DNA from: Ignicoccus pacificus DSM 13166 | GTDB taxonomy: Archaea > Thermoproteota > Thermoprotei_A > Sulfolobales > Ignicoccaceae | Length of the DNA: 32,000 bases | Direction of reading: 5' to 3' | Assembly (NCBI GenBank): GCA_025340205.1 | Contig: CP006868.1 | Coordinates: 1,110,001 to 1,142,000 of the forward strand | In this document: positions 9,795 to 16,071 of the stretch, piece by piece | How positions within the stretch are numbered: position 1 is the stretch's first letter | Layout: every line of letters starts with the position of its first letter | The notes under the pieces: model-generated | The model's database searches: none | What the model saw: the letters and a program-made list of their open reading frames with translations, nothing else | What the model was told of the DNA's origin: nothing | Translations under genes and position numbers: made by a program

Positions 9795-11063
9795 GAAGAG
9801 TCACAATAGTGAATAGAAAGTTAGGGTTGAGCTGCACTCCGTTGATCTTGACCTTGGCACCGGAAGAGTCACAATAGTGAATAGAAAGTCAACACCGCCG
9901 CCGCTGACCCGTCGGTCAAAGATACCGAAGAGTCACAATAGTGAATAGAAAGACCTCGCTATGGCCCACCATAGGCATGGTGCTCTCGGCGGTATGAAGA
10001 GTCACAATAGTGAATAGAAAGTCGTTACAAGTACGGATGAATTTGTCGGAACTGTTGTTGTAAGAAGAGTCACAATAGTGAATAGAAAGGCTTTTAGGAA
10101 CTCTAATCCCTTCTTCCTCTTCAAGCTTGTCCCAGGAAGAGTCACAATAGTGAATAGAAAGCAAGGCTCAGCAGGGCGGTGCTGTGGTCGCACCACCCAG
10201 CACGAAGAGTCACAATAGTGAATAGAAAGTTTTCAGAAATTTTTGCGTTTTTGTGAGCGGTATGGAGCGAATTGAAGAGTCACAATAGTGAATAGAAAGA
10301 CGATAATTGTGAATGGAAATTCCTGGTCGAACGAGCGATGAAGAGTCACAATAGTGAATAGAAAGCTTCTTCACGTTCTTTATTCCGGCCGGCGGCCCTA
10401 TCGCGAAGAGTCACAATAGTGAATAGAAAGGCTCTGCACTCGCTTACCATTCTCATTACCATAGCGAGGACGTGAAGAGTCACAATAGTGAATAGAAAGG
10501 GACGATTCGCTTCGAAACTGCCCGGGCCCAGCTTTCCAATGAAGGAAGAGTCACAATAGTGAATAGAAAGCTAACCGCCTCCCAGCCGTGCCACGGGACG
10601 ACGTCGGGAAGGGCGTGAAGAGCCACAATAGTGAATAGAAAGCTATCGGCGAGTTCGTGAAGTACGTCAACGACATGATAGGAGAAGAGTCACAATAGTG
10701 AATAGAAAGGCTTAGATATAGGGTAGCGCAGATAGTGAGATTCGCATATGGGAAGAGTCACAATAGTGAATAGAAAGAAGCCGAGAATTTGTATCAGTCA
10801 AATGAATTATCCAAACATCAGGAAGAGTCACAATAGTGAATAGAAAGCACCTATCTATTTTATTATTTAGGTATTTAGGTTATGAAGGTGAGAAGAGTTA
10901 CAATAGTGAATAGAAAGAAGAGAACTATCAGTACGTGGACAAGCTTTACGACTTGAGCGGGAAGAGTTACAATAGTGAATAGAAAGTCCCGGCATTCTCA
11001 CGACGTCCTCGTAGATCGTTATCGCCCTTGGAGAGTTACAATAGTGAATAGAGTGAATAGAAT
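9795..11063 (+). CRISPR. CRISPR array: 19 repeats (26 nt, GAAGAGTCACAATAGTGAATAGAAAG) and 18 spacers of 38-46 nt
   Basis: Hand-mapped repeat starts: 9795, 9863, 9927, 9996, 10064, 10136, 10204, 10274, 10340, 10405, 10474, 10545, 10617, 10684, 10752, 10822, 10892, 10961, 11030. Repeat 13 has T7C, repeats 17-19 have C8T, and repeat 19 is degenerate. The + strand is assigned because the repeat ends in ATAGAAAG (8-nt handle type) and decay is at the right end. Confidence 0.97.
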
Positions 11064-11159: not shown

Positions 11160-11684
11160 GTGACAGCAACTACGCTTTGCCCTGAACTCTCATTCAAAGA
11201 ATTCGACGCCTTGGAGGATTTACAAAGCGTAGCTAGGTCTTACTTGTACGTGGTCTTCAAAATTGAAGACATGGAGATTAAATTTGATTTGTTGAGATCA
11301 ATGAGACTAGCCTTTGAGAGGGTGCTCCAAGAATTCGGACTTAGAGAGAAACCCATTCTAGATAGTATAGAAGCCGGCGTTGTCGGAGCCTTAAGGGCCT
11401 TGTATCATGAGATATCTAAGAAGCTCTTTGGAATATATTCGGTAAAGGTAATAAATAGCAAGAAGAAGGGCAGGAGATTACAAATATCTTCCAAGGAAGG
11501 GACGGAGGAAGTAAAGCTAACCAAGGAAGAGCTCGAGGAACTGCTCAAAGTAATTGAAAACTATGACAAGTACTCATATAGGATAAACGAGAGCACAACT
11601 TCAGTAACCTATGAGCTACTCAATCCAAAGTTGATATATGAAGTCATAAAGTTAATATGTGAGAGAAGGGCAGGGGAGCTTTAA
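11160..11684 (+). CDS. Hypothetical protein (174 aa), low-GC, next to the CRISPR trailer
   Basis: GTG-start ORF with a Lys/Glu/Ile-rich product and no recognised motif. Codon usage is visibly more AT-rich than the neighbouring rpl10e. Confidence 0.45.
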   Translation: MTATTLCPELSFKEFDALEDLQSVARSYLYVVFKIEDMEIKFDLLRSMRLAFERVLQEFGLREKPILDSIEAGVVGALRALYHEISKKLFGIYSVKVINSKKKGRRLQISSKEGTEEVKLTKEELEELLKVIENYDKYSYRINESTTSVTYELLNPKLIYEVIKLICERRAGEL

Positions 11685-11722: not shown

Positions 11723-12241
11723 ATGGCGAAGCCTGCTAGGTGCTTCACGAAGAGGCATGCTAAGGCCTTCAGCGGCCCGCCCTACACCAGGAAGGAGTAC
11801 ATACACGGAGCTCCCATGCCCAAGGTAGTGAAGTGGGTAATGGGTAACCCTAAGGTTGAGGCCGACGTGGAGCTAAGGCTGGTCGCCTTAGAGAGGGCTC
11901 AGATAAGGCACAACGCCTTGGAAGCGGCGAGAGTTATGGTTCACAAGAACCTCTCCAGCGCTATAGGTGAGAGCAACTACGTCTTCATAATCAAGAGGTA
12001 TCCCCACCACGTGCTAAGGGAGCACAAGTTCATGGCCTTCGCCGGAGCGGACAGATTGCAAGAGGGTATGAGGCACGCCTTCGGAAAGCCCGTGGGACTG
12101 GCCGCTAGGGTCTACCCTGGCTATGACATCTTGGTGGTAAGGACCAAGAAGCAGTACGTCGACAAGGTCAAGGAGGTCTTGAAGATAGCTGCCTCCAAGA
12201 TGCCCATACCCTGTACCATCGAGATAAAGGAACTTAAGTAG
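11723..12241 (+). CDS. rpl10e: 50S ribosomal protein L10e (uL16)
   Basis: MAKPARCFTKRHAKAFSGPPYTRKEYIHG.P..K... and RYPHHVLREHKFMAFAGADRLQEGMR are characteristic L10e blocks. A T5 run follows directly after the stop. Confidence 0.9.
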   Translation: MAKPARCFTKRHAKAFSGPPYTRKEYIHGAPMPKVVKWVMGNPKVEADVELRLVALERAQIRHNALEAARVMVHKNLSSAIGESNYVFIIKRYPHHVLREHKFMAFAGADRLQEGMRHAFGKPVGLAARVYPGYDILVVRTKKQYVDKVKEVLKIAASKMPIPCTIEIKELK

Positions 12242-12380
12242 CTACTTTTTAATACCTAATTCTCTTAGCTCTGTTAGAGGGAATGAAAGATGGAGAGAAC
12301 GGAAGTTCAAGAAGAAAAGAAGGAGTTCATAGAGGTGAAGTATCCAAACAATCCCTACTGGGCAGCATCTTTGTAACGAC

Positions 12381-12388
12381 TTTTAACA
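12381..12388 (+). promoter_or_regulatory. TATA-like box for the ATPase gene (a leaderless transcript is implied)
   Basis: TTTTAACA is centred about 26-27 nt upstream of the ATG at 12411. That is the usual archaeal TATA-to-TSS spacing. Confidence 0.35.
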
Positions 12389-12410
12389 CAATCCTTTACG
12401 GGTCAAGGGC

Positions 12411-13493
12411 ATGTATTTCACTGTCCTGGAAGCGGAGTTTAGAAACTTCAGGGGCCTTCAAGGGACAGTAAGGTTTGGAAAGGGGCTGAATTTAATCTTA
12501 GGTCCCAATAGTGCGGGAAAGACCACCCTCTTGGAAGCTGTGGCGTTTTCTCTCATACCTCATCTCTCCGAGGTAGCTGAGTTCGCAGACTTCCTAATGA
12601 TGATGGAGGCTTCAAGGGGTAGTGTAAGACATTCTTTCTCTTCAATGATTTCGGGAGAGGATGCCGAAGCGTGTTTGAAGATGAACACGCTAAGTGATGC
12701 CAAAAAGATTTGCATAAATTTAACAAAAAAGGAATATCTAATTAGTATACCAGGAGAATATGAAGGTGTAATGAAAAGGGTTGAGGTCATTGTAGAAAGT
12801 AGCAATGGAAATAGTATCCAATTCATCTTCGATAAAAGAGGATATGGATTTAGGGTAAAACACTCAAAAAGAGGACTTAGTGGAGGAATTGCAGTAATAC
12901 CAAGCGGGGTTCTTCCGTATAATAGGACTGAAGCCAGAATAGGTACATTAAAGAGGAAAAACCCAGATATCTTACAAAAATTTATCATTTCAATAGGAGA
13001 CAAGAAGTATTCTATAGACTTGGCAACTGATGAATGGGATGAAGCGTTAGTTATGGTTGTCGAGAAAGATAAACTTTATCCTTTCTATTCTATAGGAAAG
13101 GGGCTGCAAAGAGCTTTTCAAATCATGATCTTTGGTGCATTATATGATTTACTATTGATTGATGAGATAGAAAGCTCAATGCATCCAGAGCTCTTAGCCC
13201 ACATATCACTATACATCACCGAGCTTGCAAAAGAAAGACAAATTATAGTGACAACTCAGAGTTTAGAAGCATCTATGTTCTTGGCCTCGGCGGCTTTGGG
13301 CTTAAAACCGACTACGGATAGAGAACATATTTTAGAAAAGTTAGAAGAAACGGCCGAGGAACCCTTGTTCAACTTGATAATAATTGATACTTACGATGGA
13401 CGCATGAAATCGGCAACTCTTTCCGGTAAGAGTGCCATACGTAAACTTGTAGGTATGGATGACGTGAGATTGAGTTACAAGTTCTTGAGGTGA
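12411..13493 (+). CDS. ABC/AAA_21-type (OLD/AriA/RloA-like) ATPase
   Basis: Walker A is GPNSAGKTTLLEA (K37). A signature-like YSIGKGLQRAF is present. Walker B/D-loop is LLLIDEIESSMHPELL, followed by IIVTTQS. A long variable insert lies between Walker A and the signature, as in SMC/ABC-like AAA_15/AAA_21 proteins. The sequence is low-GC. Confidence 0.75.
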   Translation: MYFTVLEAEFRNFRGLQGTVRFGKGLNLILGPNSAGKTTLLEAVAFSLIPHLSEVAEFADFLMMMEASRGSVRHSFSSMISGEDAEACLKMNTLSDAKKICINLTKKEYLISIPGEYEGVMKRVEVIVESSNGNSIQFIFDKRGYGFRVKHSKRGLSGGIAVIPSGVLPYNRTEARIGTLKRKNPDILQKFIISIGDKKYSIDLATDEWDEALVMVVEKDKLYPFYSIGKGLQRAFQIMIFGALYDLLLIDEIESSMHPELLAHISLYITELAKERQIIVTTQSLEASMFLASAALGLKPTTDREHILEKLEETAEEPLFNLIIIDTYDGRMKSATLSGKSAIRKLVGMDDVRLSYKFLR

Positions 13494-13501
13494 ACTGATG
13501 A

Positions 13502-13957
13502 ATGAAAGTTATGGCTTACGTAGAAGGATGTCTAGATAAAGTGCTCTTAGAGCAATTACTTCGCAAATCTTGTAGAACGGATCAATACTATGTGGAGATT
13601 CAGATTACTGGTGGAGGAGAAGCTCCAATGAGACAAGCCCTCGACGAAATCTCAAATAATATAGGAAAATATGTTATCATAGCTATTGATTCTGATGACA
13701 TGCCTCGAGAAAAAGTGAAAACGTTCGAAAATATGCTTAGTGAAGCTGGCATTGAAATAATTAAAAAAGAGGAAATAGATAAAACAAACAAAACTATAAC
13801 GCTGTATAGAGTTAACGTCACGAAGGATTCGTCAGTAAATGTTATCCTCCTTCAATGGCATCCAACTGCGGAAGGAATACTGTGGAGAGCCTTGTACGAA
13901 TCGAAGGGATGCGAAGAAGTGTTACCTCCTAGATGTTGCGTAAACGAGATGTTCTAA
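13502..13957 (+). CDS. Small Toprim-like protein (DUF4435/DUF4276-type), putative nuclease partner of the ATPase
   Basis: 151 aa starting 8 nt after the ATPase stop. N-terminal AYVEGCLDKVLLEQLL (E8) plus YVIIAIDSDD (D63/D65) matches the Toprim Glu ... DxD arrangement seen in OLD/DUF4435-type partners of AAA_21 ATPases. Confidence 0.5.
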   Translation: MKVMAYVEGCLDKVLLEQLLRKSCRTDQYYVEIQITGGGEAPMRQALDEISNNIGKYVIIAIDSDDMPREKVKTFENMLSEAGIEIIKKEEIDKTNKTITLYRVNVTKDSSVNVILLQWHPTAEGILWRALYESKGCEEVLPPRCCVNEMF

Positions 13958-13970
13958 AAAGTGTCCGAAA

Positions 13971-14177
13971 GTGTATGTGAAGATGGAAGTCATAGCGTTA
14001 ATGACTAGCTGCAGGGGAAAAGACACTTTAGTTCTTGCCAGTGGGGAGGGAAAGTGTGGTGTGGACTTAAGAGGAACACTTGAAGCGTTGGGTTCCTTTA
14101 AGACTAAGAGTCTAAGTACTTATGTCGACAATCTTAAAACTGCATGTAAGAAGCTTAAGCACAACTCCTCACTTTAA
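13971..14177 (+). CDS. Small ORF (68 aa) of unknown function; could be a third island gene or a frameshifted tail of the Toprim-like gene
   Basis: ORF in a different frame, 13 nt after the 13957 stop, within the same low-GC stretch. No motif recognised. Confidence 0.2.
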   Translation: MYVKMEVIALMTSCRGKDTLVLASGEGKCGVDLRGTLEALGSFKTKSLSTYVDNLKTACKKLKHNSSL

Positions 14178-14212
14178 ATCATCCCTATCCTTCGGACCTC
14201 GGGTAGGAAGAG

Positions 14213-14737
14213 TTGAGCGACTTCAACGTTACGGTAGCCTGTTGGAGGGGTAAGGAGATAAAGGCAGAGGCGGAGTTGAGGAGCTACTGGGACAAGGAGT
14301 TCTACGTGGTCAGGAGGCAACCGAGCCTACTCATAATAAAGCACAAGGGAGATCCCTTTGAAGCCGTGAAGAAGCTAAAGGAGATGGTTGATCCTAGGTA
14401 TACCACCCTCCTCAAAGCCATACCTTACGACTACAGCGTTCCCGCAGACATCAATGAGGTGGTTAAGGCTGTTGAGAAGGCGGCCAAGAAGATCCCAGAG
14501 GGAGAGACCTTCAGGATAACCCTCCAAGGTCCCATATTCGAGCTGAGGGGAGACGACTGGGTGGAGTTGGATAGGGAGGAAGTGATTAGAAGAGTGGCTG
14601 AGGTCGTCAAGAGACCCGTTAACTTGACCCAACCCCAGTGGGTAGTTTACATCAAGAGCCTTCCTCTTAGAGGAATCCAACAAGCCGGAATAAGCGTTCA
14701 CAGACCGGAATGGATATTTACCGTCAAGCCCTATTGA
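14213..14737 (+). CDS. THUMP-domain protein (putative RNA-binding/modification factor)
   Basis: 174 aa, TTG start. ETFRITLQG......EEVIRRVAEVVKRPVNLTQPQWVVYIKSL....AGISV follows the THUMP pattern (f.v...r.g....s.e....g..i....V.L..Pd..i.v). Confidence 0.5.
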   Translation: MSDFNVTVACWRGKEIKAEAELRSYWDKEFYVVRRQPSLLIIKHKGDPFEAVKKLKEMVDPRYTTLLKAIPYDYSVPADINEVVKAVEKAAKKIPEGETFRITLQGPIFELRGDDWVELDREEVIRRVAEVVKRPVNLTQPQWVVYIKSLPLRGIQQAGISVHRPEWIFTVKPY

Positions 14738-14738
14738 G

Positions 14739-15425
14739 GTGATTAAAATTTACTACGCCTTAAAGCCCCCAAACGGTACAAAGGCCTATGACTTCTGGTT
14801 GCTCAAGCAAGCTTCGAAGGCAAGGAAGTTCTATATGGGAACGTACTATATTCCATCAAAGAAGCTCTACGTTCCGGTGTTCAAGAGGATAGGAGGGGCC
14901 GATCCCAGAGCGTTCCTAGAGGTCAAGCCCTCTGAGCTGAGGAGCGCCTTCAAGATGGTGTGCATAGAGGGATGCGGCCAATGCTGTGAAAGGAACTCTA
15001 ATGCTAGGATAATGGAGTCCGAGGTCGAGCAGTTAGGGATAGAGCTTAGGAACAAGCCAAGTTACACCTTGAAGCTAATTGATGGTACAGAGGAGAAGAT
15101 ATACAGGTTGGATACTAGGAAGGGAGGTCAATGCGCCTTCTACAATCCTTCTAGGAAGAGATGCGTGTTGGGGAAGAAGAAGCCGATACTTTGCCTAATT
15201 CATTACTGCACAGCCTTTGCTGAAAGGGTAGAAGGGGGAAGGAAGAGGAAGTACGTGAAGGTCTCGAGCAAGTTCTTGCCAGAAGGAAGGGTCGAGATGG
15301 TCTTCGAGCCTGTTAGCGAGGAGGAGTGGGAGGAGATCAAAAAGATGGTAAGGAGAGGAACCAATGTTTGGAGGGCAGTAGCGGAGATCCTTAGGAGAAG
15401 GAACTTGCCGAAGGCAGAGTCTTAA
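14739..15425 (+). CDS. YkgJ/UPF0153-family cysteine-cluster (putative Fe-S/Zn) protein
   Basis: CIEGCGQCCE (CxxCxxCC) followed by GGQCAFYNPSRKRCVLGKKKPILC. This is the typical two-block Cys pattern of the family. Confidence 0.6.
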   Translation: MIKIYYALKPPNGTKAYDFWLLKQASKARKFYMGTYYIPSKKLYVPVFKRIGGADPRAFLEVKPSELRSAFKMVCIEGCGQCCERNSNARIMESEVEQLGIELRNKPSYTLKLIDGTEEKIYRLDTRKGGQCAFYNPSRKRCVLGKKKPILCLIHYCTAFAERVEGGRKRKYVKVSSKFLPEGRVEMVFEPVSEEEWEEIKKMVRRGTNVWRAVAEILRRRNLPKAES

Positions 15426-15807
15426 CTCCCAAATTTTGTGTTATTTTCCTCTGCTTCTCGTCTAAGGTAACTAACGTAAAGCCGTGAGCCTCCGCTGTAG
15501 CTATGTAAAGCGAGTCGTAAACTGTTACCTTAAAGCTATCAGCAATACTGAACGCTCTATCCAAGTACTTTAATGAGGATAGCGTTTCCAGAAGGTCCCT
15601 CGCTTCTCTAAGTACAACTAAAGCGTATTCCTTTTCCTCGGAGTTTAAGTCTTTTAATATAGCTACGTGATTCCAAATGGTGTTGATCGTTTCAACGAAG
15701 GCTAGGTCTAAAGTGGAAGAAGGCAAGATCTGCAAAAGGTCCTTCCATCCCTTTTCCTTAAGACACAAGGCTGCTAGGGCCAAGGCGTCAAAGAGAGTCC
15801 CTTTCAT
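15391..15807 (-). CDS. vapC: PIN-domain protein (VapC-like toxin)
   Basis: 138 aa. TVYDSLYIATAEAHGFTLVTLDEKQ is the conserved C-terminal PIN block. Upstream acidic residues are plausible (D7, E in FVET). The 3' end overlaps the convergent YkgJ-type gene by 35 nt. Confidence 0.65.
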   Translation of the reverse strand: MKGTLFDALALAALCLKEKGWKDLLQILPSSTLDLAFVETINTIWNHVAILKDLNSEEKEYALVVLREARDLLETLSSLKYLDRAFSIADSFKVTVYDSLYIATAEAHGFTLVTLDEKQRKITQNLGVKTLPSASSFS

Positions 15808-15810
15808 CTC

Positions 15811-16071
15811 TTATCTCCGAGCTCGCGAAGCCCTTTCCTTTTCCCTAACGTTCTCCAACAATTTTTCTATTCTTGATTTTTCATTTTCTCCTTCAATTCC
15901 TTCTTTATCCTTATTGAGAGGACGGCGCTCAAAAAGAAGCCTCCCTGTATGTAGGTGTATACGGTAGCATATAAAGAAGGGTTTGGGGATCCTGGCGAGT
16001 TTGCGAATGGTTAATTGACTTACCGATAAGTTTGACTGTCCTAAATAGTAGCCTATATTAATTTGGAGCAT
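15811..16071 (-). CDS. Possible cognate antitoxin ORF, start very uncertain
   Basis: The ORF stop (TAA) lies 3 nt before the PIN gene ATG, which is classic TA coupling. Only the C-terminal, charged portion (..EKSRIEKLLENVREKERA..) looks protein-like. The full 86-aa ORF would overlap the cytochrome gene's promoter and start region. Confidence 0.3.
   Translation of the reverse strand: MLQINIGYYLGQSNLSVSQLTIRKLARIPKPFFICYRIHLHTGRLLFERRPLNKDKEGIEGENEKSRIEKLLENVREKERASRARR

Follow-up and report, generated by a model that had tools for sequence, protein, structure and literature searches.

The 32-kb window analyzed here (the whole stretch of DNA under study), from Ignicoccus pacificus DSM 13166 (Thermoproteota, Desulfurococcales), contains a low-GC cassette in which a gene for an ATP-binding cassette (ABC)-type ATPase (IPA_06550) is directly followed by a partner gene (IPA_06555). 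Comparison of homologous loci in hyperthermophilic Desulfurococcales and their relatives showed that the pair is conserved and co-evolves as a unit, that it is mobile across genomic settings unrelated to one another, and that it is usually AT-richer than its host. The pair is probably a horizontally acquired operon that joins an AAA_21 ATPase to a Toprim-like, metal-dependent nuclease of the DUF3226 family, and would represent an archaeal split-gene relative of the OLD-like conflict systems. Systems that join an ABC ATPase to a Toprim domain (OLD, Gabija, PARIS, and retron effectors) are a major theme of bacterial immunity, and an earlier reading of this DNA from its letters alone (hereafter, the original prediction) had proposed a PARIS/OLD/AbiL-like defense module at this position. 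In the I. pacificus copy, the partner gene is, judging from its alignments, split by a single-base frameshift. The features of the cassette are given below, with open reading frame abbreviated as ORF.

12242-14212, no strand: low-GC island (39.9% GC) holding the entire cassette, between rpl10e and the next gene of native GC content
12381-12388, forward strand: TATA-like box TTTTAACA, centered ~26 nt before the ATPase ATG (12411)
12411-13493, forward strand: ABC-type (AAA_21) ATPase of 360 amino acids, IPA_06550, with intact Walker A, signature, Walker B, and MHP motifs
13487-13493, forward strand: Shine-Dalgarno-like GAGGTGA that overlaps the stop codon of the ATPase gene and lies 8 nt ahead of the partner ATG
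13502-13957, forward strand: N-terminal part of the partner gene (151-amino-acid ORF, IPA_06555), alpha/beta and Toprim-like, DUF3226 family, with E8, D12, D63, D65, and E124
13944-13957, forward strand: frameshift interval of 14 nt in which both frames are open, located by three-frame translation
13944-14177, forward strand, +1 frame: C-terminal part of the partner gene, 77 open codons, including a 68-amino-acid ORF from the GTG at 13971; helical domain

The cassette is compositionally foreign to its surroundings. Its low GC content had been judged by eye in the original prediction, and computation agreed with this impression, since the window as a whole stands at 49.5% GC compared to 39.9% in the island. 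The latter is essentially the lowest-GC span of its length in the 32 kb, with only 0.27% of 1,971-nt windows being equally low and the minimum-GC window of that size located at 12211. The GC content of third codon positions (GC3) is 0.34-0.44 in the three ORFs of the cassette versus 0.58-0.78 for the majority of the window's other genes, with values of 0.75 for rpl10e, whose identity was upheld (Pfam Ribosomal_L16, 1.7e-28), and 0.65 for the right-hand gene (14213-14737).

The ATPase carries the motifs attributed to it in the original prediction, namely, Walker A (GPNSAGKTTLLEA), the signature YSIGKGLQRAF, and Walker B (LLLIDEIESSMHPELL), and the expected AAA_21 and AAA_15 profiles were both recovered. 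AAA_21 (PF13304) scores 67 bits against a Pfam cutoff of 27 (E = 3.9e-18), placing the protein in this family, and AAA_15, AAA_23, and SMC_N also exceed their own cutoffs. Residues G31-N33-G36-K37-T38, Y226-G229-G231-Q233-R234, D251-E252-E254, and M257-H258-P259 are invariant or nearly so in 20 homologs and are present in the window copy, H258 of the MHP motif being presumably the H-loop. The best PADLOC matches (AriA 2.2e-19, PDC-M38A 5.2e-16, AbiLi 5.3e-15, and HEC-01A 2.7e-11, plus mad3, GajA, and PtuA) are all ABC ATPases from defense systems that combine an ATPase with an effector. The nearest solved relatives are PtuA, Rad50, SMC, and AriA, with alignments only around Walker A and the signature/Walker B region. 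About 20 homologs were found among 5.8 billion proteins, at 31-47% identity, and no other Ignicoccus protein was among them. Those of known source come from Desulfurococcales, Pyrodictiaceae, Acidilobaceae, unclassified Thermoproteota metagenome-assembled genomes (MAGs), and Pyrodictium abyssi, all of them hyperthermophiles. The source organism of the window is itself a hyperthermophilic crenarchaeon, as proposed originally. A distant AAA_21 paralog of 316 amino acids (IPA_02300, or P0022; 28% identity) is encoded in the same genome outside the window and is named GajA/Old-like by one source.

We collected 27 loci encoding ATPase homologs, 19 of which are distinct. Co-occurrence of the ATPase with a partner had been set beforehand as one point on which the original prediction could fail, and a partner gene was found directly after the ATPase gene in 17 of these 19 loci. 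The partners are mutually homologous proteins of 210-250 amino acids, whose start ranges from 4 nt before to 93 nt after the ATPase stop codon. No other neighbor is common to more than two loci, and those shared by two lie on closely related contigs. Furthermore, the pairwise identities of ATPases and partners are correlated (r = 0.67), a value that none of 5,000 Mantel permutations reached. Mean identity is 25% for the partners versus 39% for the ATPases, indicating that the partner evolves faster. The module lies at least 3.5 GC points under its flanks in 13 of 19 loci, and it combines the atypical composition, variable context, and patchy distribution expected of mobile genes or defense islands.

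Regulatory motifs are in line with this picture. The GAGGTGA motif before the partner ATG suggests operonic coupling with the ATPase, and of 12 other loci, 7 likewise have a Shine-Dalgarno-like motif ahead of the partner gene. Given known crenarchaeal promoter geometry, TTTTAACA, found at the spacing that the original prediction had reported, may act as a promoter and is compatible with a leaderless transcript. Composition, co-inheritance, and the TATA-like and Shine-Dalgarno-like motifs all fit a mobile two-gene operon. The partner is absent at two ATPase loci. At L002 (1-6173), the ATPase gene is found beside an MCM helicase gene and an IS605 OrfB/TnpB gene, and the locus looks like an integrated element. 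At L021 (1711-3673), it is followed by an unrelated ORF of 288 amino acids with no Pfam match.

The same data bear on whether the pair could serve the cell in a way other than defense, for instance in repairing DNA, processing chromatin, or controlling the cell cycle. There is a precedent for a housekeeping archaeal protein with ATPase and Toprim domains in Cran1 of Sulfolobales (PMC12796447), a cell-cycle factor that is the only characterized archaeal member of the OLD family. The ATPase profile also matches the heads of Rad50, SMC, and RecF, and no viral trigger or defense phenotype is known. However, Cran1 is an essential, vertically inherited protein with fused domains (PMC12796447), whereas the genes are split here, the homologs are few and scattered with none in another Ignicoccus, the composition is foreign, the neighbors differ at every locus, and 3 of 17 partner genes are broken, while 2 of 19 loci have no partner. 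Patchiness, foreign GC content, changing neighbors, and a broken or missing partner are incompatible with an essential conserved function, and we thus consider a cellular role very unlikely.

A frameshift in the partner gene

The partner had been described in the original prediction as a minimal Toprim protein of 151 amino acids, beginning 8 nt after the ATPase stop codon and trailed by a separate 68-amino-acid ORF. Both ORFs are present (13502-13957 and 13971-14177), but their alignments indicate that they are the two parts of one gene for a protein of ~224 amino acids, split by a single-base frameshift at 13944-13957. When compared to the intact 208-amino-acid protein of locus L001, the 151-amino-acid ORF aligned with residues 2-136 (35% identity, E = 3e-26) and the 68-amino-acid ORF with residues 144-205 (E = 4e-08). 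A profile hidden Markov model (HMM) built from the intact partners of homologous loci also matched the window in two pieces, with positions 6-157 at 13502-13954 (E = 1e-25) and positions 160-230 at 13944-14174 in the +1 frame (E = 5e-13). As the two ORFs cover consecutive positions of the profile in different frames, they are best read as a single gene with a one-base frameshift. Any one-base deletion within 13944-13957 joins them, and the reconstructed protein of 224 amino acids aligns with intact homologs over their full length (E = 1.7e-42 to the partner of L013). This reconstruction retains 17 of the 18 strongly conserved positions of the family, including K160, C170, C185, G186, and Y207 downstream of the break, which points to a break of recent date or to an error in the assembly. 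The module of two or three genes that was originally proposed thus loses its third member, since the 68-amino-acid ORF corresponds to the C-terminal part of the partner. A third module gene was also rejected on the grounds that the partner is the sole conserved neighbor of the ATPase.

The break leaves the catalytic domain and C146 on one side and the C-terminal domain that carries C170 and C185 on the other, and no Shine-Dalgarno-like motif was found upstream of the C-terminal fragment. With the two domains severed and the second piece devoid of a ribosome-binding site, the system is probably dead in this organism. The partner effector is most likely inactive in I. pacificus. Barring an error in the assembly, the locus would be the remnant of a system disabled only recently. 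For annotation purposes, IPA_06555 and the unannotated 68-amino-acid ORF should be treated as one disrupted gene. The disrupted partner also makes this locus unsuitable as a functional exemplar, for which the intact pairs of L001 and L013 are better choices.

The exception made for an error calls for separate consideration. If the frameshift stems from sequencing or assembly, or if the two pieces come together in trans, I. pacificus would have an intact, functional module. Conserved positions are kept before and after the break, no stop codon interrupts the 77 codons of the C-terminal frame although the DNA is AT-rich, and a single base restores a full-length protein. Two other partners, those of L015 (6119-6825) and L019 (630-1365), are likewise split into two frames, and both are found on low-coverage MAG contigs, where errors are common. 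In contrast, the deposited complete genome annotates the 151-amino-acid product unchanged, the interval 13944-13957 (ACGAGATGTTCTAA) is free of long homopolymers up to the stop codon, and the second piece lacks a Shine-Dalgarno-like motif upstream. All 14 intact homologs are, moreover, single polypeptides. In the literature searched, no I. pacificus genome paper settling the sequencing technology was found. We regard a functional module in I. pacificus as unlikely, although it is an alternative to be taken seriously.

The splits at L015 and L019 are either independent disruptions or assembly errors. Programmed frameshifting was considered and rejected: among the three split copies, the break falls at a profile position of its own in each (157-160, 90-99, and 74-112), and the frame offsets differ as well. 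Of 17 partner genes, 3 are broken, compared to none of 19 ATPase genes (Fisher p = 0.095), a difference that is only suggestive of preferential breakage of the partner.

Nature of the partner and proposed mode of action

Taken alone, the 151-amino-acid ORF looks like an orphan. A word-indexed protein search returned no homolog beyond the ORF itself, and HMMER, run exhaustively against 1.84 billion representatives, found one true homolog; the family becomes visible only with the conserved ATPase as an anchor. Among 13 partners gathered in this way, nine match DUF3226 (PF11536) at E < 1, with alignments spanning positions ~4-174 of the 208 in the profile. The gathering score of 27 is exceeded by P0027 and L023 (both 28.0), while L012 (26.2), L003 (24.1), and most of the partners fall below it. 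By these scores, the partners appear to make up a divergent branch on the margin of DUF3226. The original prediction had expected DUF4435, DUF4276, or Toprim_OLD. The expectation of a Toprim-like DUF family held with DUF3226, but DUF4435, OLD-like_TOPRIM, and Toprim_2 gave weaker matches that stayed below threshold. DUF4435 matched one family member at 1.3e-3 and scored 19 bits versus 27 in P0030. For the window ORF itself, the corresponding values are E = 0.013 for DUF3226 (15.7 bits versus a gathering score of 27), E = 0.08 for OLD-like_TOPRIM (13.9 versus 23.2), and E = 0.09 for Toprim_2 (13.5 versus 22.1). Among the 13 partners, PADLOC returned some weak matches (PDC-M38B 3.4e-5, HEC-01B 2.8e-4, and also mad4), and these B components belong to the same candidate systems as the A components matched by the ATPase.

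Conserved residues and predicted structures are also informative. In window numbering, E8, G9, C10, D12, D63, D65, E124, and C146 are invariant in the family. The residues E8 and D63/D65, which the original prediction had singled out, are invariant across 14-15 family members, and D12 and E124 are invariant too. These acidic residues follow, as E-x3-D ... D-x-D ... E, the arrangement seen at the two-metal Toprim site in AriB, which consists of E26, D30, D88, E90, and E122 (PMC11464382). AlphaFold2 models were obtained for the closest intact homolog and for the 151-amino-acid ORF (predicted local distance difference test scores of 86.5 and 83, respectively). Both models contain a beta-alpha-beta-alpha-beta-alpha-beta core followed by a beta-meander, and the full-length protein adds the Cys-bearing C-terminal helical domain. 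According to DSSP, strands span residues 2-7 and 57-63, such that E8 closes beta-1 and D63/D65 close beta-3, as required of a Toprim domain. The only local alignment between the partner and P2 Old obtained with hhalign places VEGxxD, GG, and DxD over VEGktE, GkG, and DcD of Old. Motifs and profiles thus support the description of the partner, a putative nuclease, as Toprim-like and of the DUF3226 family.

By analogy with PARIS and OLD, we infer a defense function for the cassette. An oligomer of the ATPase would sequester the nuclease in an inactive state and sense a cue of infection. In response to a trigger from the virus, and with ATP bound or hydrolyzed, the nuclease would then be freed or activated, and it may cut nucleic acid (tRNA or DNA) and arrest the infected cell. 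Such a mobile, co-evolving pair would give DUF3226, an orphan Pfam family, a testable function; neither DUF3226 nor PF11536 was mentioned in the literature searched. The pair would also supply a thermostable model of an ATPase gating a Toprim nuclease and join the very few candidates for a defense other than CRISPR in Desulfurococcales.

Several observations weigh against this defensive operon. The partner ORF of the window lies under every Pfam threshold and has no PADLOC match, a search of PDB sequences with the partner profile found no relevant solved structure, and the hhalign comparison with P2 Old was not significant (E = 0.16). Foldseek searches with both models did not return the Toprim fold of the original prediction, ranking no Toprim structure high; their top matches were to the alpha/beta subdomain of MoaB, MogA, and gephyrin-E (template modeling [TM] scores of 0.38-0.49). 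No integrase, tRNA gene, or att-like direct repeats flank the island, and no relatives were found on viral contigs. HEC-01, the nearest PADLOC candidate, gave no protection in Escherichia coli assays (bioRxiv 10.1101/2024.01.29.577857), and Cran1 shows that an archaeal OLD-family protein can have a non-defense role (PMC12796447).

The Foldseek results raise the alternative that the partner is not a nuclease and that its N-terminal domain is MoaB/MogA/CinA-like, or another Rossmann-like ligand-binding domain, with a convergent resemblance to Toprim. Cnx1E, gephyrin-E, MoaB, MogA, and CinA were the top matches of both models (E = 1e-4 to 1e-2, probability up to 1.0), and no Toprim structure appeared in the top 27 matches of the full model or among the best 50 matches listed for the domain model. 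AriB (8ux9_A) only ranked 28th, with an E-value of 0.06 and a probability of 0.25. However, the MoaB-type matches have TM scores under 0.5 and root-mean-square deviations of 4-6 Å, sharing only a generic three-layer alpha/beta fold, and no partner matches Pfam MoCF_biosynth at E ≤ 1. The signals from sequence profiles are all of the Toprim type (DUF3226, DUF4435, OLD-like_TOPRIM, Toprim_2, HEC-01B, and mad4), and the five invariant acidic residues fit the AriB pattern. Foldseek itself also matched the TOPRIM domain of viral DnaG/twinkle with a probability of 0.96 (TM score of 0.32). A partner without nuclease activity is thus highly improbable in our view.

The pair could also be a selfish addiction cassette resembling a toxin-antitoxin system, in which the ATPase restrains a nuclease toxin and persistence relies on post-segregational killing and not on protection from viruses. 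Pfam describes AAA_21 as a "putative AbiEii toxin, Type IV TA system", and AriA is labeled "antitoxin" in PDB entries. The recurrent breakage of the partner described above, suggestive only as it is, would be expected of a toxic gene. One homolog adjoins MCM and IS605 OrfB/TnpB genes, hallmarks of integrated elements, and a VapC gene is found 1.2 kb downstream of the cassette in the window. The lack of an integrase, att repeats, or tRNA gene beside the island and of copies on viral contigs counts against addiction as well. Moreover, toxin-antitoxin and abortive-infection functions are not mutually exclusive, so that this alternative overlaps with the defensive operon that we favor. A purely selfish cassette seems to us quite unlikely.

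Surroundings of the cassette

A clustered regularly interspaced short palindromic repeats (CRISPR) array of 19 repeats (GAAGAGTCACAATAGTGAATAGAAAG) with a ~68-nt period extends over ~9795-11055 and ends 1.36 kb before the ATPase gene, in keeping with the ~1.3 kb given in the original prediction. No cas gene lies within ~10 kb of the array on either side inside the window. The final three repeats are degenerate, which places the leader probably at the 9.8-kb end, and the neighbors of the array encode an SLAC1-type channel and a MiaB-like radical SAM enzyme. A further CRISPR-linked setting of the module is found in the two closest intact relatives, where cas6 directly abuts the module (L001, 6741-7502, reverse strand; L013, 1095-1859, reverse strand).

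Between the array and rpl10e, a 174-amino-acid ORF (11160-11684, forward strand) has a GC content of 0.406 and a GC3 of 0.47, with a weak match to PF0610-like_N as its only hit. This ORF being low in GC too, rpl10e sits between two AT-rich segments. The spacer between rpl10e and the ATPase gene contains a second TATA-like run, TTTTTAATA, at 12246-12254. It also contains a 62-amino-acid ORF (12283-12471, forward strand) that was set aside as probably not a gene, as it overlaps the ATPase start and has no family matches.

On the right-hand side, the gene at 14213-14737 (forward strand) had been labeled THUMP, a name that could not be verified given that no Pfam family matched it at E ≤ 1. It has no solved-structure relative of known function, and its sole PDB sequence match below an E-value of 0.1 is a designed protein (8g8i, 1.6e-05). 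The VapC-like gene downstream of the cassette encodes a PIN domain (15391-15807, reverse strand; Pfam PIN, 1.1e-08) and is preceded by an ORF of 86 amino acids (15811-16071, reverse strand). This region (15391-16071) is moderately low in GC (0.43), and the two genes probably constitute a VapBC toxin-antitoxin pair.

Comparison with known systems

The PARIS/OLD/AbiL-like label of the original prediction held for the ATPase, which matches AriA, AbiLi, and GajA, but not for the partner, which has no AriB or AbiLii match and does not place in PARIS, Gabija, or AbiL proper. Split ATPase/Toprim systems ("class 4") have been reported by published surveys only in bacteria (PMC12796447). Their PARIS representative, made of AriA and AriB (DUF4435/Toprim, "class 4" OLD-like), shares with the cassette two separate genes, with the ATPase first and a Toprim-like effector second. 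Sensing of an Ocr-like trigger and cleavage of tRNA by PARIS have been established experimentally (PMC11464382). AriA is also the best PADLOC match of the cassette ATPase, although the alignment falls into two partial stretches; the AriA sequence in the PDB is matched at only 29 bits and solely in the Walker A region. The proteins of the cassette are smaller, with an ATPase of 360 amino acids versus 464 for AriA, which has IS1/IS2 helical insertions (a difference of 104 amino acids), and a partner of ~224 amino acids versus 306 for AriB. No AriB match was found by PADLOC for the ORFs of the window or for any of the 13 partners. The partner is placed with DUF3226 and not with DUF4435, carries Cys residues in a C-terminal helical domain as well as an invariant Cys in its EGC motif, and is archaeal, unlike the class 4 systems reported only from bacteria.

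AbiL, HEC-01, and PDC-M38 have a compact ATPase of ~340-370 amino acids, as does the cassette. The AbiLi model aligns nearly end to end with the cassette ATPase (9-291 versus 6-296 of 340), but no partner matches AbiLii (RloB-type). The A components of HEC-01 and PDC-M38 match the ATPase, whereas their B components only match 2 of the 13 partners, weakly and without the window copy being among them; HEC-01B itself has been described as a TOPRIM protein with an ABC ATPase as its partner (bioRxiv 10.1101/2024.01.29.577857). These systems are bacterial, in contrast to the archaeal cassette.

OLD classes 1-3 (P2 Old, Gabija GajA, and the retron-associated proteins) and Cran1 also combine an ABC ATPase with Toprim. 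GajA, PtuA, and OLD are matched by the cassette ATPase, and the Toprim motif register of P2 Old aligns with the partner. However, these proteins are single fused polypeptides of ~530-690 amino acids, while the cassette genes are separate in the window and in all 17 partner-bearing loci. Cran1-like OLD proteins (clade U11) are conserved vertically across their order, whereas the cassette is patchy, foreign, and dispensable, being found in scattered MAGs and variable contexts.

It is conceivable, though we only advance it tentatively, that the family is an as yet unrecognized, archaea-only class of split OLD-like immune systems, in which a compact AAA_21 ATPase is paired with a DUF3226 Toprim nuclease having a Cys-cluster C-terminal domain, and which circulates among hyperthermophilic Desulfurococcales, Pyrodictiaceae, and Acidilobaceae. 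If so, DUF3226 would gain its first function, class 4-type immunity would extend to Archaea, and the burden of a toxic nuclease would lie behind the recurrent breaks of the effector (3 of 17 loci). Since the partner is not recognized by the AriB and AbiLii models, the proteins are smaller, and DUF3226 occurs with a Cys-bearing domain, the cassette does not appear to be a member of PARIS, AbiL, or HEC-01. By analogy, it may nevertheless work like a class 4 OLD-like system such as PARIS, or like AbiL and HEC-01.

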